A DNA stretch of 64,000 bases from Candidatus Yanofskybacteria bacterium RIFCSPLOWO2_02_FULL_41_13 (GCA_001795735.1 MGKQ01000020.1:52050-116049), one strand, 5' to 3'. Counted from the stretch's first letter, positions 4,932 through 61,079 are shown. A program made the numbers and translations. The notes: a model not told the origin generated them from the sequence alone.

Positions 4932-6170
4932 ATGACATTAGGCAATACATTCAAAACTTCAATTAAGGGCTTGTTAACTCACAAGTCGAGGTCAATTTTA
5001 ACTATTCTCGGCATTGTTATCGGCATCACGGCGATAATGCTGGTTATGGCGGTAAGCCGGGGAGCAAAAGATCTGATACTTTCCCAGATACAAGGTTTGG
5101 GATCGCAGACAATAATCGTTCGGGCGGGGCGTGAGCCCGAAGGTCCTTCGGACTTCGCTTCAATTTTTACAACATCGCTTAAGGACAGGGAAGTCCAGGC
5201 TTTAAAAAATCCGGCATTTGTCAGAGGAGTTTTAGCGGTCGCTCCCAATGTTATCGGTTCGGGTACGGCTCTTTACGGAAGTGAAACAAAAAACGCCAGT
5301 TTGCTCGGAACGACGACTGATATTCTTCAGGCCCTTGAAATTCAGCCTCGATACGGCGCTTTTTTCAGTGAAGCCGATGTTGCCGCCCATTCAAGCGTTG
5401 CCGTTCTGGGATCTGAAGTCAAAGAAGAGCTTTTCGGCGATTCAGATGCGGTGGGGGAAACGATAAAATTTTATGACCGGAATTTTAAAGTTATCGGCGT
5501 ATTTGATAATATAGGACAAATAGGAGCTTTCGATATAGATACAAATATTATTGTTCCGGTAACAACCGCCAATCAGTATTTGCTCGGCAACAACCACTAC
5601 ACCGTAATTATGGTCAGGGTTGAATCGGAGGCTGTTATTGAAAGAGCTGCCGACGATATTCGCCAGACTCTCCGCGAGCTTCACGGCATAACTGATCCGG
5701 ATAAGGATGATTTTTTTGTGGCTACTCAGGCTGATCTGGCCGAGAGGGTCGGCACTATTACCGGAATTTTATCGGCTCTTCTTCTTTCGGTTGCGGCAAT
5801 CTCTCTTGTTGTCGGCGGGATTGGAATTATGAATATTATGCTTGTGTCGGTAACAGAAAGGACGCGGGAAATAGGCTTGCGCAAGGCCGTGGGTGCAACT
5901 ACGGGAGATATCTTGAGGCAATTTCTTTTTGAATCAGTCCTGTTAACTTCAGTCGGAGGCGTTATCGGCATTAGTCTGGGAGCGGTCTTGTCACTGCTTG
6001 CGTCTGTCATTCTCACCAGATTTTTAGAAGTTAACTGGGGATTTGCGTTTCCAATAACCGGAGCCCTGCTTGGTTTTGGGGTATCGGCTTTAGTCGGTCT
6101 CATATTTGGAATATATCCGGCCCGCCAAGCATCACGCAAGAGTCCAATAGAAGCTTTGCGATATGAGTAG
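4932..6170 (+). CDS. ABC transporter permease (FtsX/MacB-like)
   Basis: N-terminal TM, large periplasmic domain, C-terminal 3 TM bundle typical of MacB permeases. Confidence 0.8.
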   Translation: MTLGNTFKTSIKGLLTHKSRSILTILGIVIGITAIMLVMAVSRGAKDLILSQIQGLGSQTIIVRAGREPEGPSDFASIFTTSLKDREVQALKNPAFVRGVLAVAPNVIGSGTALYGSETKNASLLGTTTDILQALEIQPRYGAFFSEADVAAHSSVAVLGSEVKEELFGDSDAVGETIKFYDRNFKVIGVFDNIGQIGAFDIDTNIIVPVTTANQYLLGNNHYTVIMVRVESEAVIERAADDIRQTLRELHGITDPDKDDFFVATQADLAERVGTITGILSALLLSVAAISLVVGGIGIMNIMLVSVTERTREIGLRKAVGATTGDILRQFLFESVLLTSVGGVIGISLGAVLSLLASVILTRFLEVNWGFAFPITGALLGFGVSALVGLIFGIYPARQASRKSPIEALRYE

Positions 6171-7220: not shown

Positions 7221-9173
7221 ATGATCAAACAGGCATCTCGTATATTGGTTTTTGCGGTTACGATATTGGTTGGTACTAATCTTATCTTTGCCGATGAGGG
7301 AATGTGGCTTTTGAGCAATTTGCCACTAAACGAACTTAGGCAGAAGTATAATTTTGTTCCTTCAGATCAATGGACTGAGCAGGTTCAGAAGAGTTCTGCT
7401 CGGTTACCCAATTGTTCAGCTTCGCTTGTTTCTTCAGATGGTCTGATAATGACCAACGGACATTGTGCTCAGGAGGCTGTGCAAGCTTTAAGTACGCCCC
7501 AGAACAATCTGTATGAGAACGGATTTTACGCCAGAACTTTACTTGCAGAAAAGAAGACAAGCTTGAATCTCAAAGTTCTGATAAGCGTTGAAGACAGAGG
7601 CGTTCAGAAGCAGGGTCTGGTTTGTGAGGAAGTTATTCTTTATCAGGGCGGTCAGTACAACAACTATTGTTATAAAGTTTATGATGATATCAGACTTGTT
7701 TTCTCCAGTGAAAAAAATACATGGTTTTTCGGCGGTGATGCCGATAACTTTGAATATCCGCGCTTCGCAATGGACGTTGCGTTTCTAAGAGCCTATGAAA
7801 ATGATAAACCAGCTCAGACTTCTAACCATTTTAAGTGGTCAAAGTCAGGAGCATCCGAAGACGAACTTATATTTGTTTCGGGTCATCCGGGAAGTACGGA
7901 ACGTATGCTGACTTCAGCAGCTCTTGAAACTGAGCGGGATATAAAAGCTCCATTTATTCTGGATCTTATAAGGCGGCGTGAGATCACTACTCAGCAATTT
8001 ATGCTGAGGGGTAAGGAACAGACACGTATTGCCAAGTCAGATCTGTTTAGCTGGCAGAACGGCAGAAAACTTTATACTGGCAAGATAAGAGGATTGCAGG
8101 ACTTAGATTTAACTGACAGTAAGAAGATCTATGAAAAAAAAGTTACAGATGATGCTAAAAATAAGCCCCATCTGACAAAAAAGCTAGAAGACGGTCGTTT
8201 GATGGTTGCCGACGCCCAAACAGCTATCAGAGAGATATATTCTAAAGTTGTTCTTCTTCTGGCCAGACACGGATTTGATAGTAGATTGTTTAAGTACGCC
8301 CAGAGTCTTGTCTCAGGAAACCAACAATTTGCCGAATCAGTTCTTGAGGAAAGAAACAACGAGCCTCCGCTTAATCTCGAATATGAAGAGGCAAAGTTAA
8401 GGGACTCTCTAACTCATTTTACTGAAGTTTTTGGAGTAAATAATCTGGCGACACAAGATCTCCTAATGCGGTACCATGAGCGGCCGTCGGATGTTGCCAG
8501 TTTATTAATTTCGAGTACTAGGCTAGCAGATTTCAATGAGCATAAATTAATTGTTCAAGAGTTTATAAAGTCAGGTAGTTTGCCGTTTGGCAACGGGGAT
8601 TTAATTGTTGGATTGGTTCGGGACATTCAAGTCAAACATGCTCCGCAGTATGAAAAAGCATGGCACGATGCTCTTGAAAAAGAACGACAAGGCTATGCTA
8701 AAATATCGGAGGTATTATTTGAACTTTACGGAACAGATATATATCCCGATGCAACATTTACTTTGAGATTATCATTTGGCACGGTGTCGGGCTATGAAGA
8801 AAACGGCAGGCAGATTGCACCGTTTACAACAATTGGCCAAGCATTTGCCCACTCGGCTGAATTTGATAATACCGGAGATCACCAGTTGCCCTTAAGCTGG
8901 TATAAAGCCAGACGGCTTTTAAGGTCAGCCACGCCTCTGAATTTTACTTCAAATCTGGACATTACCGGCGGTAACTCGGGAAGTCCGGTATTTAACAAAG
9001 AGTTAGAAATTGTCGGTCTGGTCTTTGATGGCAATATTCATAGCTTGGTGAGCGATTATGACTATAACTATTCCCCAAAATCAAGAGCCATTTCTGTTCA
9101 TTCTTCCGGTATTCTGGAAATGTTACAGAAAGTGTACAAAGCAGACAGGCTGGTCAAAGAATTGACCCGATAG
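7221..9173 (+). CDS. S46 family serine peptidase (dipeptidyl-peptidase 7/11-like)
   Basis: Signal peptide then DEGMW motif, TNGHC catalytic His motif, GGNSGSPV catalytic Ser. Start placed at ATG 7221 with upstream GGAGATAGGGGA RBS (track ORF 7098). Confidence 0.75.
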   Translation: MIKQASRILVFAVTILVGTNLIFADEGMWLLSNLPLNELRQKYNFVPSDQWTEQVQKSSARLPNCSASLVSSDGLIMTNGHCAQEAVQALSTPQNNLYENGFYARTLLAEKKTSLNLKVLISVEDRGVQKQGLVCEEVILYQGGQYNNYCYKVYDDIRLVFSSEKNTWFFGGDADNFEYPRFAMDVAFLRAYENDKPAQTSNHFKWSKSGASEDELIFVSGHPGSTERMLTSAALETERDIKAPFILDLIRRREITTQQFMLRGKEQTRIAKSDLFSWQNGRKLYTGKIRGLQDLDLTDSKKIYEKKVTDDAKNKPHLTKKLEDGRLMVADAQTAIREIYSKVVLLLARHGFDSRLFKYAQSLVSGNQQFAESVLEERNNEPPLNLEYEEAKLRDSLTHFTEVFGVNNLATQDLLMRYHERPSDVASLLISSTRLADFNEHKLIVQEFIKSGSLPFGNGDLIVGLVRDIQVKHAPQYEKAWHDALEKERQGYAKISEVLFELYGTDIYPDATFTLRLSFGTVSGYEENGRQIAPFTTIGQAFAHSAEFDNTGDHQLPLSWYKARRLLRSATPLNFTSNLDITGGNSGSPVFNKELEIVGLVFDGNIHSLVSDYDYNYSPKSRAISVHSSGILEMLQKVYKADRLVKELTR

Positions 9174-13005: not shown

Positions 13006-13016
13006 ATCTCAGAGAC

Positions 13017-13232
13017 TATACCCAGACTTGGATCATTCCTCGCAAGAGATTATTACCTTTCGGTCCACGTTCGCCTTGCTCCAGCGGCAAGGCTCACTCG
13101 ATTGTCGCCGGATTTTGTCAAGGAAAGACCAATTGACAAACCAAGCAATCCGGCGACTCCATGGTCCCGAGAAGGTAATAATCTCTTGCTCGTAGCTTTT
13201 TTTATTTCCTCCCTAGGGTATAGTCTCTGAGA
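13017..13232. mobile_element. MITE-like element, 17-bp terminal inverted repeats TCTCAGAGACTATACCC and nested internal 18-bp inverted repeat
   Basis: TIRs seen directly at both ends. Internal perfect IR GCAAGAGATTATTACCTT / AAGGTAATAATCTCTTGC. Related to the copies at ~20.7 and ~46.7 kb. Confidence 0.6.
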
Positions 13233-13399
13233 TATTATTTTGTATTTACTGAGTAAACTCAAACGGTTTCAAAATAGGAATGGCCAGCAATTATTTTTGC
13301 TAATTTTTTAGAAAAAAGTAATGTGTTAGTGGGAGGTTAGAGATATTGATTAGAGGCGCTTATTTTACTAGAATGAGGTTATCTTAAGGCTCAATACCT

Positions 13400-15316
13400 A
13401 TGGAAAAACCAGGTTTTCTCAAAGAAAAATACAATTTACACAATACTCCCGAAGTAGATTCGGCCGCGAAAAGAACCGAAGCCAAGACCAAAGAAAAAGT
13501 CTCTCAGAAGCCAGAGGCCAGAATCCAGAACTATCTTGACCGATTAAAGCATCTTGCCCTTGATCCGGATAAAAAGCAGAAAAGAGAGATGTTTGGATAT
13601 GAACCGCGACCGCGTGCTTTATCACTGCTTCGAGAAATGGTTATGAATAAATATGTGCGTCCAAACAAAGAAAAAATGGCCGAAGGGGCGGCAAGAGTCG
13701 AAGAACGTGCGGCAAGAGAGTTGGGTATCGAAGCTCATTATGGAGAACAAGAGCTCGAACAACGCGGAGAAATCGCCGTCGAAGATTTGGAAAAATCATT
13801 GGATGAATGGATAAAATACCTATCCGATGCCAATGAGCCATATCCTATTTGGTTCAGATATTATGTTTTTCGAAATATTCTAGATCTTGGGGACTATGAT
13901 AAGGATAAAGGCGAATTTACTAAACGTTCTGAGGGGACAATCCGTCTTTTTCCAGAAGTAGACCGCGGAGCTCTTGGTTATGTTCAGGAAAGGATGGAGG
14001 CTTCTAAAGATCTCGAAGCGCTGGAACGTCTACTAAAAGCTCAAAAGACAATTGATACTCCCCAAGACCAGCTTATAACCAAAGAAAAGGCGGTTAGTTT
14101 TGCTAAGCTCTCTTTTGCTAAACAATATGCGGAAGGCATAAAACAAGCTGGAGAAATAACTTCGGAGATGCGGGAAGAAAAAGGGGGCAAGTGGGTAAAA
14201 TATCAGAAAGGGACGGATCCTACGGCATTGTGGGCATCTCTCCAGAACAAGGGTACCGCCTGGTGTACTAAAGGATTTGCTACAGCAGAAACTCAACTCA
14301 AGAGCGGTGATTTTTATGTCTATTATACCAACGATAAACAAGGCAAACCAACAATTCCACGCATAGCCATCAGAATGCAGGAAGATAGTATCGGAGAGGT
14401 CCGTGGAGTAGCGGACAATGATCAGAATCTCGAAGGAAATATGGCCGATATTGCTGAAAAAAAGATGGCTGAACTGCCGGGAGCAGAAAGATACCGCAAG
14501 GCTTCAGCGGATATGAAAACTCTGACTGCTATTGATAAAAAAGTAAGAAGTGGTCAAGAGCTCAAAAAGGACGACCTGATCTTCCTATATGAAATCAATT
14601 CATCCATCGAAGGCTTTGGCTATCAGAGAGATCCGCGTATTGAAGAATTAAGATCAAAAAGAAATTCTAAAGAAGACGCCCCTATAGTTTTGGATTGTAA
14701 ACCAGAAGAGATTGCCCACTCAACAGGCGATGTGGATGATAATACCAAGGCTTATATCGGCAAACTTCCGCTAGGCATTTTTGATACTAGTAATCGCAGG
14801 ATATTACCTGAAGGTGTTGAGCATATTTACACCTCATTTCCGGAAGGCAAGATCAGGAAAATGGAGGTCTTTATAGGTGGAAAATCTAAAGAAGAACTCA
14901 AAAAAGAATTGGCCATGAAGAATATTAAAGTCACTTCCTATGCCACGAGCGTGATGGATGGCAATAATTTTACCATTAAGGAAAGTTCTGAAAAACTCGA
15001 ATTGGTAAGATTAACCGTCAAAGACCTTGGTTTTTCCAATAGTGCTACGACACAGGAAATATTTGATAAAGCTAAAACTCTAGGCTTAGATCTTTGTCCG
15101 GCAGAAGTCGGACCCAACCTGAGACTTCAATATGAAAACCAGCCGCTAGGCGAATGGGTTTATGTTGCCATGAAACCAATTACCGATTCTGGCGGCAATC
15201 CGCGCGTCTTCAACTTGGTTCGCGACGTAGACGGTCTGTGGTTGCACGGCTATTGGGCCAATCCGGATAGCAGGTGGCGTCCCGGCAGTGAGTTTGTTTT
15301 CTGCCTTCGCAAGTGA
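13400..15316 (+). CDS. DGR variable (target) protein, function unknown; C-terminal VR encoded at ~15179-15315
   Basis: The last ~45 codons are repeated (with A-specific differences) in the TR downstream. C-terminus ends FVFCLRK, compatible with a CLec/FGE-type VR scaffold. Confidence 0.8.
   Translation: MEKPGFLKEKYNLHNTPEVDSAAKRTEAKTKEKVSQKPEARIQNYLDRLKHLALDPDKKQKREMFGYEPRPRALSLLREMVMNKYVRPNKEKMAEGAARVEERAARELGIEAHYGEQELEQRGEIAVEDLEKSLDEWIKYLSDANEPYPIWFRYYVFRNILDLGDYDKDKGEFTKRSEGTIRLFPEVDRGALGYVQERMEASKDLEALERLLKAQKTIDTPQDQLITKEKAVSFAKLSFAKQYAEGIKQAGEITSEMREEKGGKWVKYQKGTDPTALWASLQNKGTAWCTKGFATAETQLKSGDFYVYYTNDKQGKPTIPRIAIRMQEDSIGEVRGVADNDQNLEGNMADIAEKKMAELPGAERYRKASADMKTLTAIDKKVRSGQELKKDDLIFLYEINSSIEGFGYQRDPRIEELRSKRNSKEDAPIVLDCKPEEIAHSTGDVDDNTKAYIGKLPLGIFDTSNRRILPEGVEHIYTSFPEGKIRKMEVFIGGKSKEELKKELAMKNIKVTSYATSVMDGNNFTIKESSEKLELVRLTVKDLGFSNSATTQEIFDKAKTLGLDLCPAEVGPNLRLQYENQPLGEWVYVAMKPITDSGGNPRVFNLVRDVDGLWLHGYWANPDSRWRPGSEFVFCLRK
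15179..15315 (+). repeat. DGR variable region (VR)
   Basis: 137-nt match to TR with 18 mismatches, all at TR adenine positions. Confidence 0.85.
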
Positions 15317-15605
15317 TTTTTTGATTCTTTAAATCTTTCAGAAATTTTAATTTTTTGTTTCTTTTGAAACTTTGATATAATTATTTTGGTTTGGTTAATC
15401 GGACGGCCACGGCTTTCCGAAACCATTCTAACGGATACGAGTTGAGAGCGTAGACGGTCAAGGCTTTCTGCGGAGGATTTGTATCATGTTATACAAAAAG
15501 AAAACACTTGGTGTACCATGCTGGCGGAGTCTTGCTCCCAAATAATATACAGCCCCAGCCTCTTATAAAGATTCGGCGGGCAGTGGTAATGATGGCATGG
15601 TGCAC

Positions 15606-15742
15606 ATAACCGATTCTAGCGGCAATCCGAACGTCTTCAACTTGGAACGCAACGAAGACGGTCTGTGGTTGAACGACAATTGGGCCAATCCGGATAACAG
15701 GTGGAATCCCGACAATGAGTTTGTTTTCTGCCTTCGAAAGTA
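15606..15742 (+). repeat. DGR template repeat (TR), non-coding, AAC-rich
   Basis: Base-by-base alignment with VR: every difference is TR A to VR C/G/T. Track ORF 15597..15878 here is spurious. Confidence 0.85.
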
Positions 15743-15756
15743 TCTTCTTTTCCGCA

Positions 15757-16080
15757 TTACAAGGTGCGGTTTTTCTTTTCAGGATTCTCCAGGCTTTTCT
15801 TCCAGCCACCCAACATTTTTCCAATTTCTTCCAACTTCAAAGCGATATCCCCACATTGTTTGTTTGAGATTAGCTTAGCCTCCCAAGCCACAGAAATAAG
15901 AAATTTAAGAGTGTCAGTAATCAATATACAGCCTGAAATCTTTTCCGATTTTTTATCTTTTTCGGTAAAGTAAGCTTTGTGAGAAAGTTCAAGAAGATCT
16001 ATAAATTTATTTTCAATTCGTGCACCTAATGTGTAGCGTGCACCCTTAGTAATATGCGGAACAATATTCATCCAAACCAA
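15757..16080 (-). CDS. avd: Avd-like accessory variability determinant (four-helix-bundle protein)
   Basis: 107 aa helical protein. C-terminal EEIGKMLGGW resembles the Avd/TIGR02436 ILGSWI region. Lies between TR and RT but on the opposite strand. Confidence 0.6.
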   Translation of the reverse strand: MVWMNIVPHITKGARYTLGARIENKFIDLLELSHKAYFTEKDKKSEKISGCILITDTLKFLISVAWEAKLISNKQCGDIALKLEEIGKMLGGWKKSLENPEKKNRTL

Positions 16081-16105
16081 ATATCCCTCTTTGATTCGAT
16101 TCAGG

Positions 16106-17131
16106 ATGGAGGCACCATTGGAAGGCTGGGGGGGGGGCTTTAAAGGTGTTCATAATACATATTATGATATCATCTCTGTCCAAAATTTGCTTGTCGCATG
16201 GCAAGAATTTCTAAAAGGAAAACGTAAACGTCGGGATGTTGAGAGGTTCTCGGTTAACCTACTAGATAATATCCTAAAGTTAAATAGAGAATTGGCAGAT
16301 AAAACATACAGACATGGGGCATATCATGCGTTTAGAATAAATGATCCAAGGCCTCGCAATATCCATAAAGCTAGTGTTCGTGATCGACTTTTGCACCATG
16401 CGATTTACAGAATTTTATACCCATACTTTGATCCAAAATTTATTTTCGATTCTTTTTCTTGCCGTCGAGTAAAGGGTACACACCGGGCAATAAATAGGTT
16501 CCATAAATACTGCCGAAAGGTTTCACATAATCACACTCGAACAGTTTGGGTTTTGAAATGTGATATTAAAAAGTTTTTCGAGAATATTAACCACGGTATT
16601 TTAATGGGTATTTTGAAACGATATATTCAGGACGACGATGTCGTATGGTTGTTGGGCGGGGTTATGGATAGTTTCCATTCAAAAAGTAAACACGGCACGG
16701 GACTACCTTTAGGCAACTTGACTAGCCAATTACTAGTTAATATCTACATGAACGAATTTGACCATTTTGTAAAACGTGAGCTGGGGACACTACATTATAT
16801 TCGTTATGCCGATGATTTTATAATTATCCATGAGAGTAGAAGATATTTAGAAAACCTATTACCTAGTATCTCTATATTTTTAGAAAAACAGTTAAAGCTT
16901 CAACTCCATCCGGATAAGGTATTTATTAAAACCCTCTACTCTGGTGTCGATTTTCTTGGCTGGGTTCATTTTTCAACACATAGAGTGTTAAGAACTACGA
17001 CGAAACACAGGATGTTTAGAAACATTCAAGATAACCGCGGGAACGACAACGCCATTCAGTCTTATCTCGGTCTGATCAGTCATGGTAACGCAAGGGGCTT
17101 AGGGCGAAAGATAGAAGAATTATTGTTGTGA
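16106..17131 (+). CDS. DGR reverse transcriptase
   Basis: LPLGNLTSQ (DGR-specific) motif, YADDF catalytic motif, N-terminal LLVAWQEFLKGKRKRR. First ATG is 16106 (track TTG 16091); alternative TTG at ~16184. Confidence 0.9.
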   Translation: MEAPLEGWGGGFKGVHNTYYDIISVQNLLVAWQEFLKGKRKRRDVERFSVNLLDNILKLNRELADKTYRHGAYHAFRINDPRPRNIHKASVRDRLLHHAIYRILYPYFDPKFIFDSFSCRRVKGTHRAINRFHKYCRKVSHNHTRTVWVLKCDIKKFFENINHGILMGILKRYIQDDDVVWLLGGVMDSFHSKSKHGTGLPLGNLTSQLLVNIYMNEFDHFVKRELGTLHYIRYADDFIIIHESRRYLENLLPSISIFLEKQLKLQLHPDKVFIKTLYSGVDFLGWVHFSTHRVLRTTTKHRMFRNIQDNRGNDNAIQSYLGLISHGNARGLGRKIEELLL

Positions 17132-17191: not shown

Positions 17192-17324
17192 TTGAAAACA
17201 AATCAGTTAGCAGACCATCTGCAGGCGAGCGGGCGCGGTTCCGCCGTAGGCGGAGAGCGAGCCGAAGCCGAGCAGGATTTCTCGCAGGGAAATCCTGCGT
17301 GTCTGAGAACTGATTTGTTTTCAA
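17192..17324. repeat. GC-rich element bounded by ~23-bp inverted repeats (TTGAAAACAAATCAGTT.GCAGAC), contains internal hairpins
   Basis: Seen directly between the RT stop and the CcdA start. The GC-rich interior is atypical for this AT-rich genome. Confidence 0.5.
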
Positions 17325-28903: not shown

Positions 28904-29011
28904 ATTTGTTTAATTTTCAATTATCAATTCTCAATTTTCATTGAATTTTCAATGCATCAATGATCCATTAGGAAATTTATTGTAAATTGCAAATTGAAAA
29001 TTGATAGTAAT

Positions 29012-44500: not shown

Positions 44501-44788
44501 TTGAAATGAAAAATAAGTTGTAATTAACGGCAGTCTCTTTTCTATACTCCTCTGAATCCATTTGAGCTTCATCAGTACAAATTCATAATATTTATGATAT
44601 TTTCCTGGGAGTCCAATCGGGGTGGTTCGGAACGGCCGCGTTCTAATTCTTATTAGGACGGGCGTATGGCCGAACCGAGGTCCCTAATTGGTCAGAGAAA
44701 ATGAAATAAATATTATAGAATTTGTTGATGAAGCGAAGGCGATGAAGAGGAGTATAGAAAAGAGACAAAGTTATGGTATAATCTACTT

Positions 44789-58055: not shown

Positions 58056-58915
58056 ACGAGTCTGCTTTAAATGATTATCTCAAGGAGGCTAGAAAAAATG
58101 GCTATGCAATTGGCCATTTTAATTTTTCGACCGAAGATGTTCTGCGGGGGATTGTTGAAGCGGCCCATGATGCCGGCGCGCCGGCGGTGATGGTGGGGAC
58201 CTCGGAAGGTGAAGTTGAGTACTTCGGCATGGATGAGGCCGTGGCCCTGGTTCAGGCCGTCAGGAAGCATTATAATTTTCCGGTCTTTTTAAATGCCGAT
58301 CATTTCAAAAGTTTTGATAAGTGCCGTGAGGCGATAGATGTCGGATACGACTCGGTTATTATTGATGAATCGAAAATGCCTTTTGCTGATAATATGGATA
58401 TTACGAAAAAAGTTGTTGAATATGTCAAATCTAACGGAAAGCACACTCTTGTTGAAGGAGAAATAGGTTATCTTCGGGGGTCTTCGGAAGTTCAGAAAAA
58501 AGTAGAAGTAACTCCCGACGATTATACAAAGCCGGAACAGGCCAGAGAGTTTGTTGATAAAACCGGTGTAAATCAATTAGCCGTTGTTTTTGGCAATATT
58601 CATGGGATTGTGACCGATCAGGAGGAAAAGCTCGATATAGGGCATTTTAAGAGGATTGTAGAGGCTGTTCCTGAGGTATATTATGTCCTTCACGGAGCAT
58701 CCGGGCTTAAAGATGCCGATGTTCAGGCGGCGATTAAGGCGGGTGTAACTAATGTTCATTTTAATACCGAACTTCGGGTGGCCTACACCGAAGGACTTCA
58801 TAAAGCTCTCCATGATAAACCCGGCGAAACTACTCCCTACAAATATCTCAAGGTCGGAGTAGATGAAATGAAAAAGGTGGTCTCAGCGAAGATTAAGCTA
58901 TTTATGGGGCGATAG
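58052..58915 (+). CDS. fba: class II fructose/tagatose-bisphosphate aldolase
   Basis: GHFNF...H at metal sites, LHGASG motif. Confidence 0.85.
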   Translation: MNESALNDYLKEARKNGYAIGHFNFSTEDVLRGIVEAAHDAGAPAVMVGTSEGEVEYFGMDEAVALVQAVRKHYNFPVFLNADHFKSFDKCREAIDVGYDSVIIDESKMPFADNMDITKKVVEYVKSNGKHTLVEGEIGYLRGSSEVQKKVEVTPDDYTKPEQAREFVDKTGVNQLAVVFGNIHGIVTDQEEKLDIGHFKRIVEAVPEVYYVLHGASGLKDADVQAAIKAGVTNVHFNTELRVAYTEGLHKALHDKPGETTPYKYLKVGVDEMKKVVSAKIKLFMGR

Positions 58916-59105
58916 TTCTAATAAATAGTTTCTCGGAAACAGAAAAATCGGCTCCAGCGGCCGATTTTTCTTCGTCCTTGACATTTTGAAGAACCAAGCC
59001 AAAATGTCTGTGGATGTTCCTTAAAACTATTTATTAGAGCTATCTCGTTGCTTTGCTTAAATAGCCGTGCTTTAATATAGGGCAGTACTTGATATCGAGG
59101 AGACT

Positions 59106-60938: not shown

Positions 60939-61079
60939 ATTTTGTTTGCTAACGAAGTGAGCAGTAACAAAAGTTACCCCGCCCTCTAAGCTTGTGATTC
61001 ATGGTATAAACTAAAGAATAACGGGCATAGAGGGCGGGGTGCTCATAATTATAGCTACTCGTTACACTCGAAGATAATT

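Follow-up and report, generated by a model that had tools for sequence, protein, structure and literature searches.

What occupies positions 13,400 to 17,131 of a 64,000-nucleotide stretch of DNA from Candidatus Yanofskybacteria bacterium RIFCSPLOWO2_02_FULL_41_13 (GCA_001795735.1, MGKQ01000020.1:52050-116049; hereafter the window), where the 3′ end of a long open reading frame (ORF) reappears as an imperfect copy a short distance downstream? Our analysis indicates that this segment is very probably a genuine and complete diversity-generating retroelement (DGR), carried on the chromosome and of the type known from bacteria that belong to the candidate phyla radiation (CPR). The gene order, read from ORF, repeat and profile coordinates, is a target gene ending in a variable repeat (VR), a leader, a template repeat (TR), an antisense avd gene and a reverse transcriptase (RT) gene. 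The host, an ultra-small bacterium, is represented by a Candidatus Yanofskybacteria metagenome-assembled genome (MAG) from Rifle groundwater/aquifer. A preliminary description of this locus had proposed a complete DGR cassette, with repeats that differ only at template adenines as the footprint of mutagenic homing, an RT carrying the DGR-specific SQ motif and YADD, and an Avd-like gene. All of these proposals are borne out by the analyses reported here, which add the minus-strand orientation of avd, a detail absent from that description.

Mismatches between the repeats fall exclusively on template adenines

The only long repeat in the region is a 153-nt direct repeat at an offset of 427 nt. 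Base-by-base comparison places the VR at 15179-15315 and the TR at 15606-15742, both on the plus strand, and the ungapped alignment of these 137-nt segments contains exactly 18 mismatches. The TR base is A at 18 of 18, with no mismatch at a non-adenine template position, and the corresponding VR base is G at nine, T at five and C at four. Given that the TR holds 39 A residues in 137 nt, the hypergeometric probability that all 18 mismatches would fall on A is 4.4e-12. Identity between the repeats collapses just 5′ of 15179 and just 3′ of 15315, and blastn finds no third copy within the 64-kb window.

The VR ends at the stop codon of the target and thus coincides with the 3′ end of a protein-coding gene. 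Thirteen codons are altered in the variable zone (amino acids 594, 598, 602, 607, 609, 610, 616, 617, 618, 624, 627, 629 and 630), of which 12 change the amino acid and one, Ile594, is silent; the TR reads AAC or AAT at seven of them. Mutagenesis does not account for two of the 18 mismatches. Specifically, position 15310/15737 is a fixed difference that is discussed below, and position 15315/15742 is the final base of homology and hence its boundary. Of the 16 mismatches that therefore remain in the mutagenic zone, 14 lie at codon position 1 or 2.

The same bias is independently present in 19 distinct further TR/VR pairs of the target family (21 locus entries, because two contigs were entered twice), in which the mismatches are on A only or nearly so (for example, 19/19, 20/20 and 23/23). 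These pairs support the reading of the adenine pattern as a DGR footprint. A Komeilibacteria contig (JBLYPW010000001.1) additionally carries two paralogous targets, L033 and L051, that lie about 290 kb apart and are 96.7% identical. Their VRs differ at 17 positions, of which 16 are TR-adenine sites, and the cassette-less paralog differs from the TR of the other copy at 25 positions, 23 of them on A. This pattern establishes the target family as a genuine DGR substrate and indicates that seemingly orphan copies can be remote targets. The only TR found for the pair adjoins L051, whose cassette includes a partial Avd and has no RT within 5 kb, so the RT that serves it either resides elsewhere in the genome or was recently lost.

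The cassette encodes a DGR-type RT and an antisense Avd

The RT (346 amino acids, 16091-17131, plus strand) begins at a TTG codon at 16091, with an alternative ATG at 16106, and matches RVT_1 (E = 1.5e-24) and phrog_1423 (E = 2e-104). It carries the SQ motif LGNLTSQ at amino acids 207-213 (nucleotides 16709-16729) and YADD at amino acids 239-242 (nucleotides 16805-16816). The sequence (I/V/L)GxxxSQ in domain 4 is the signature of DGR RTs, whereas group II intron RTs have QGxxxSP (PMC3521204). The best relative among Protein Data Bank (PDB) sequences is the 328-amino-acid chain 8ub7_A (E = 2e-36), and group II intron and retron-type RTs follow at roughly 1e-22.

Between TR and RT, on the minus strand, lies an ORF of 107 amino acids (15757-16080) that we read as a divergent Avd. 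It scores 48.1 bits against PF22296 (bAvd), above the gathering score of 40, and matches phrog_3206, annotated as ‘Avd protein of DGR’, with E = 4e-16. An antisense avd at the same position and on the same strand is present in at least 14 related cassettes, and the order TR-(avd)-RT is likewise kept in at least 14. This is the core of Architecture B3 as defined by Wu et al. 2018 (PMC5758913), namely TR-(avd)-RT with avd reversed, and the cassette described here has both the order and the strand. With avd starting at 16080 on the minus strand and the RT at 16091 or 16106 on the plus strand, the two genes stand head to head, their starts 10-25 nt apart, an arrangement that is also conserved in two related loci (L017 and L029).

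A covarying leader RNA precedes the TR

A conserved structured RNA appears to be encoded immediately upstream of the TR. RNAalifold applied to 20 loci predicts a leader of about 215 nt (15388-15605, plus strand) with 44 base pairs in seven helices, and 34 of these pairs show compensatory changes. In this alignment 93.4% of cells are paired, compared with 40-55% when partners are slid by 1-3 columns, and 209 cells show double changes, compared with at most 59 in the controls; none of 500 shuffles reaches the observed values. The minimum free energy (MFE) fold of the window’s own sequence reproduces the leader helices. These include predicted pairings between 15402-15408 and 15411-15417, 15436-15443 and 15476-15483, 15449-15459 and 15462-15472, 15526-15529 and 15535-15538, and 15552-15556 and 15577-15581. 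The long-range helix between 15511-15522 and 15594-15605 comprises 12 bp, nine of them with double changes, and ends directly before the 5′ end of the TR. An A-rich block of the leader also pairs with the 3′ U-tract in the window’s MFE fold, although this is low-complexity pairing for which the cross-locus check is unreliable. No Rfam family matches the leader even at E ≤ 10 (searched over 15300-16100), and none reaches its gathering score anywhere in the window.

The putative promoter of the TR-containing RNA is an extended -10-like box, TGATATAAT, at 15373-15381 on the plus strand. A TGnTAnnnT box is found at the matching relative position, about 205 nt 5′ of the GGGCAGTG box, in most cassettes. 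A GGGCAGTGG box at 15578 had been considered as the start of the TR RNA and was dropped after the conserved promoter box and the leader were found further upstream.

A stem-loop directly follows the TR

A terminator-like stem-loop (15752-15769) with a U-tract occupies 15752-15779 on the plus strand, directly after the TR, and overlaps the stop codon and last codons of avd. Folding of individual sequences predicts such a hairpin in 16 of 16 loci, with stems of 5-12 bp that are unrelated in sequence and show compensatory changes; RNAalifold applied to TR plus tail had missed it because MAFFT misaligned the hairpin. No Rfam family matches the stem-loop. Among 278 Avd-type DGRs, CPR examples included, Handa et al. 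predicted an ‘Avd-binding stem-loop’ downstream of the TR for 207, and by its matching position the hairpin seen here is likely to be an Avd site.

The family of the stem switches with the type of Avd, in that cassettes whose Avd is about 37-41% identical have CUCUCC/GGGAGAG stems. One sub-lineage (L040, L041, L045 and L049) has an RT that is 54-64% identical to that of the window and an Avd that is only 36-41% identical, together with this differing post-TR stem and a differing leader 5′ sequence. This pattern suggests that Avd and its RNA partner co-evolved or were exchanged as a unit.

A fixed difference may separate recipient from donor

The 3′ end of the VR (15289-15315, plus strand) is constant and resembles an initiation of mutagenic homing (IMH) segment, being identical to the TR over 15289-15309. 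Position 15310 is C in the VR, where the TR has A at 15737 (CGC AAG in the VR and CGA AAG in the TR; codon 15308-15310). The difference is synonymous, and protein-level selection therefore cannot explain it. Of the 18 TR-bearing loci that were compared, 11, among them the window, show the same C-versus-A/T difference, and these 11 form the group whose TR ends in CGA or CGT AAG. We read the position as a lineage-wide fixed discriminator between recipient and donor (IMH versus IMH*) and not as a product of mutagenesis. Unlike the GC-rich IMH segment of Bordetella, the constant 3′ segment is not GC-rich.

Directly after the target stop codon lies a T-rich array of short CTTT(G/A/C)-type repeats (15318-15372, plus strand). 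Most family loci, with or without a DGR and also beside orphan targets, carry four to six clearer CTTTG(A)/CTTAG repeats at 8-10 nt spacing right after the stop codon (for example, L038 at 5000-5070, L043, L035, L036 and L033). The array could serve as a binding site for protein, contribute to recognition of the target site or belong to the promoter for the TR-containing RNA as an upstream element.

The target is predicted to be soluble and to have a GNAT-like core

The target gene (13400-15316, plus strand) encodes 638 amino acids. No match to it is found in Pfam, NCBIfam, PHROG, PADLOC or PDB sequences; a Pfam scan of 46 diverse family members likewise yields nothing, and the same holds for the PDB whether it is queried with one sequence or with a 96-sequence profile. 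A ‘PcfJ-like’ relationship has been mentioned for some CPR targets (Wu et al. 2018, PMC5758913), but this link is not reproduced for the present target in profile searches. The protein has neither a transmembrane segment nor a signal peptide. Its highest 19-residue Kyte-Doolittle mean is 0.32 and its N terminus is hydrophilic, and because it lacks any hydrophobic segment the target is probably soluble and cytoplasmic.

The N-terminal conserved module of about 450 amino acids (13400-14749) is modelled from the deeper alignment with a predicted local distance difference test (pLDDT) score of 91 and a predicted template modelling (pTM) score of 0.78 for residues 1-450. In the model, helical regions accompany an alpha/beta core at about amino acids 260-360 that resembles a GNAT fold. 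Residues W137, R176, F239, Y243, G263, W265, C289, P320, R321 and G336 are invariant, and some relatives share only the N-terminal 440 residues and differ in their C termini. The acetyl-CoA motif of GNAT proteins is Q/RxxGxG/A. In the target, RGVADNDQNLEGN is the sequence of the loop between β4 and α3, where the family mostly has P in place of G346, so the motif is missing. For the GNAT acetyltransferases, which include the tRNA-acetylating toxins TacT and AtaT, no Pfam family has a sequence match among the 46 diverse members. By sequence and by motif, then, the protein falls outside the GNAT superfamily, and the similarity is one of predicted fold.

The C-terminal domain that carries the VR (about amino acids 525-638; 14972-15313) reaches pLDDT values of 85-95 in the full-length model, with its elements in the order beta-alpha-alpha-beta-beta-beta-beta. 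This tentatively assigned topology is lectin-like, and Foldseek returns weak matches to C-type lectin carbohydrate-recognition domains (best E = 0.28, probability 0.6); this search, run against the PDB with the first, shallower model, gave only matches with E > 0.1. The preliminary description had pictured a target with no signal peptide and no recognisable N-terminal domain, ending in a possible C-type lectin fold. Its first statement stands, as does the lack of any sequence match, but the N terminus is not featureless and models confidently with a GNAT-like fold. The lectin assignment is matched by the predicted topology and only weakly by Foldseek, and we regard it as plausible but unproven.

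Stages of cassette decay among related loci

More than 1,700 full-length proteins are close homologs of the target, with identities of 63-79%, and the target matches 6,032 cluster representatives at E ≤ 1e-3. Judged from named close homologs and from the titles of 62 species-representative loci, the family resides mostly in Patescibacteria, with a few records labelled otherwise. Six loci are titled Gammaproteobacteria, Oligoflexia or Pseudomonadales (L015, L021, L034, L042, L062 and L068), and the contigs in question have probably been mislabelled or mis-binned. No relative of the target was found among IMG/VR viral contigs, and neither a conserved gene context around the family loci nor a match to a defence system was found.

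A complete cassette is present in 14 of the 62 species-representative loci; in three of them (L025, L039 and L042) the whole TR-avd-RT block is inverted relative to the target. Four loci have leader and TR with no RT or Avd within 5 kb (L010, L036, L037 and L057), and one has a partial Avd (L051). Leader fragments alone occur in L008, L038, L043, L064 and L050, and weakly in L021, and an RT fragment alone in L060. At least 14 loci have nothing of the cassette within 5 kb. The related loci thus form a decay series that runs from intact cassettes to lone targets.

Individual members of the family show further rearrangements. The target of L001, which has no RT, Avd or TR nearby, sits inside an insertion of about 2.47 kb flanked by an 84-nt direct repeat (5864-5947 and 8330-8413; 94% identity) that duplicates the 5′ end of recO. 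This insertion looks like a single-crossover integration and suggests horizontal movement of the target gene. In one Moranbacteria genome (L004/L005, 6001-7989) a cassette-less family member lies between fusA (EF-G) and tuf (EF-Tu) in a ribosomal-protein cluster; ribosomal protein genes have been noted inside some CPR DGRs (Wu et al. 2018, PMC5758913). In L006 (5330-7417, protein P0118) the target ORF runs from VR-like sequence into sequence of the kind found downstream of a TR, where it overlaps antisense avd, and no separate TR was found; either VR/TR recombination deleted the spacer and leader, or the assembly collapsed the repeat. Protein P0073 has a C-terminal extension similar to that of P0118.

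A working model and the observations that weigh against it

Together, these features can be arranged into a candidate pathway. The RNA would start a few bases after TGATATAAT, near 15388, would take in the folded leader (about 215 nt) followed by the TR (137 nt), and would end at, or be structured by, the stem-loop and U-tract at 15752-15779. RT and Avd would bind this TR-containing RNA, Avd probably at the stem-loop that follows the TR. The TR would then be copied into cDNA with random nucleotides placed opposite A, and copying would stop at the 12-bp leader helix that abuts the 5′ end of the TR. The cDNA would replace the VR, guided by the constant 3′ segment, and the fixed C at 15310 (A in the TR) would tell recipient from donor. 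The predicted outcome is that 12 residues vary on the lectin-like domain at the C terminus of a protein that is soluble and probably cytoplasmic.

Several observations weigh against parts of this account. The ends of the RNA, the priming site and the stop helix are all derived from sequence. The avd and RT starts are so closely spaced that each promoter would have to lie inside the other gene, or the RT would have to be translated from read-through of the TR RNA, which would run antisense to avd. The Avd ORF scores 55 bits against the NCBIfam equivalog NF033474, under the cutoff of 80, and we call this Avd divergent because it falls short there while matching PF22296 and phrog_3206. The structure behind the best RT match, 8ub7, is taken to be the Bordetella bRT-Avd-RNA complex; a phmmer search of the PDB with the Avd found no Avd structure. 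The C-type lectin fold of the variable domain is weakly supported by the Foldseek scores given above. The VR does not differ among the 17 contigs and four MAG accessions that contain the target; because consensus assemblies hide minority variants, this uniformity is no proof of present activity or of its absence.

Finally, no GC-rich inverted repeat was found 3′ of the VR in the window, where there is only a weak AT-rich hairpin at 15357-15370. In Bordetella and Legionella, a GC-rich inverted repeat downstream of the VR is needed for efficiency. Several related loci do carry GC-rich hairpins downstream of the VR, and the feature is not universal: Wu et al. 2018 (PMC5758913) give its frequency as 34% of DGRs.

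Alternative explanations

The uniformity of the VR raises the question of whether the element is a relic or dormant DGR, in which an intact-looking cassette and the adenine pattern record past activity and the VR has since become fixed in the population. Beyond the identical contigs and MAG accessions, this explanation gains from the relatives, which show every stage of decay; the only other member of the target’s own cluster has one differing residue, outside the VR. However, all ORFs of the cassette are full length, the YADD and SQ motifs are intact, and the leader, TR and stem-loop match the consensus. Low-level activity is also compatible with identical contigs, given that consensus assemblies conceal minority variants. 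We therefore consider dormancy possible but somewhat unlikely.

The target might instead be a secreted or surface adhesin that mediates attachment of CPR bacteria to their hosts, which is the usual assumption for DGR targets. CPR bacteria are episymbionts, an attachment role for CPR DGR targets has been proposed in reviews, and the C-terminal domain resembles a C-type lectin. Against this, the target has no signal peptide or transmembrane segment and has a hydrophilic N terminus, and its N-terminal module has an enzyme-like GNAT fold in place of repeats or a fibre. Furthermore, Roux et al. 2021 (PMC8144416) remark that no recognisable domains, membrane domains among them, are present in the CPR targets of DGR clade 2. 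A role as an adhesin is accordingly improbable for this protein.

The third alternative, that no DGR is present and a segmental duplication has diverged by point mutation beside an unrelated group II intron or retron RT, can be considered refuted: the RT does score against NCBIfam and PADLOC RT families that include group II intron and retron/DRT profiles, but always far below their cutoffs, and this account is contradicted by the adenine specificity of the mismatches here and in 19 further pairs, by an SQ motif in place of QGxxxSP, by the presence of an Avd gene and by the absence of Rfam matches (at gathering score in the window, at E ≤ 10 in 15300-16100) from a library that contains group II introns. 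The reading of the segment as a genuine CPR-type DGR is thus retained.

Genomic surroundings

The genes that neighbour the DGR are cellular and encode an S46 peptidase, a P-type ATPase, a DUF4015 hydrolase, a DsbD-like protein, C39-like peptidases, MurJ and glycogen synthase. The target itself is 100% identical to A3B91_02260, which is annotated as hypothetical in Candidatus Yanofskybacteria MAGs of the Rifle aquifer.

Two large inverted-repeat structures stand on either side of the cassette. The first, at 13006-13233 between the DUF4015 gene and the target, is a 228-nt nested near-perfect hairpin with 18-nt perfect outer and inner arms (MFE -107.5 kcal/mol; z = -11.3). It has no Rfam match, is single copy within the window and was not found in related loci, and metagenome matches to its arm sequence are single and scattered only. 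The second, at 17192-17324 between the RT stop codon and the DsbD-like gene, is a branched GC-rich element with 24-nt closing arms (z = -7.3), the 3′ arm of which is overlapped by a promoter-like site; it was not found in related cassettes. More long intergenic inverted repeats of unrelated sequence occur at 44533-44766, 58911-59044, 28912-29002 and 60976-61040 of the window. The two flanking structures were considered as boundaries of the cassette and rejected, on the grounds that related cassettes are without them, that similar hairpins occur elsewhere in the window and that metagenome matches to the arm sequence are so scattered. Long hairpins seem to be a general feature of the intergenic regions of this host genome and not linked to the DGR.

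Comparison with known DGRs and related systems

Because the layout is the published Architecture B3 and the host is a groundwater CPR MAG, the element is an ordinary, textbook member of the published CPR DGR lineage and is not novel in kind. The known CPR DGRs (‘CPR set’, B3, clade 2) share with it the host group, the groundwater MAG source, the gene order and the reversed avd, as well as a chromosomal cassette and targets without recognisable domains or anchors, and nothing essential differs. DGRs of CPR/Patescibacteria were reportedly treated by Paul et al. in Nature Microbiology in 2017, and their abundance and gene order have been in print since 2017-2018. The published sets come mainly from groundwater CPR metagenomes (Wu et al. 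2018, PMC5758913; Roux et al. 2021, PMC8144416). In the accessible literature we did not find descriptions of the covarying leader RNA, of the target family with its size and its predicted structure, or of a decay series with a demonstrated remote target.

The value of the locus lies in giving the CPR lineage a clean and complete example for reference. Whether the targets are truly non-membrane proteins is left open by Roux et al. 2021 (PMC8144416), and the high-confidence model of a GNAT-like core in a family of more than 6,000 clusters makes the role of the target testable. The strongly covarying upstream leader offers the same opportunity for the working of DGR RNA outside the Bordetella model, and the related loci for the frequency with which DGRs are lost while their targets persist. 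Building on these features, we advance a two-part proposal, to which as a whole we give only tentative credence. First, the RNA would be organized in a non-Bordetella manner, with the leader as RT/Avd scaffold and stop helix and with one stem-loop and U-tract inside avd as its entire downstream part. Second, the target would be a non-adhesin, intracellular enzyme or sensor with a GNAT core and a lectin-like domain reprogrammed by the DGR. If both parts are true, the locus would provide bacteria of minimal genome size with a ‘programmable specificity’ system that operates in the cytoplasm, and its target would be among the most widespread CPR-specific intracellular proteins.

The DGR of Bordetella phage BPP-1 (mtd-avd-TR-brt), the prototype for the mechanism, shares with this element the adenine-specific transfer from TR to VR, an SQ-motif RT, Avd, the location of the VR at the target’s 3′ end and, just 3′ of the TR, a stem-loop. 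In contrast, it is encoded by a phage, diversifies a tail fibre and has avd upstream of the TR on the same strand, whereas avd is antisense and downstream of the TR here. The essential RNA of Bordetella comprises 20 nt upstream of the TR and a 140-nt spacer downstream; here, the large conserved structure is the upstream leader of about 215 nt. The stop duplex of Bordetella pairs upstream with downstream sequence and the spacer supplies the primer, whereas the TR-abutting helix in the present element is predicted to pair within the leader. The GC-rich cruciform that follows the VR in Bordetella was not found here.

The target itself can be compared with the intracellular conflict or ‘antigen sensor’ DGR targets of multicellular bacteria (PMC10907252) and with the regulatory targets of cyanobacteria (PMC7517822). 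Like these, it is soluble and non-secreted and combines an N-terminal module, potentially an effector or enzyme, with a binding domain that is diversified at the C terminus. Those targets carry STAND NTPase, kinase or protease domains, whereas the protein described here has in their place an unannotated module with a fold-level similarity to GNAT proteins.

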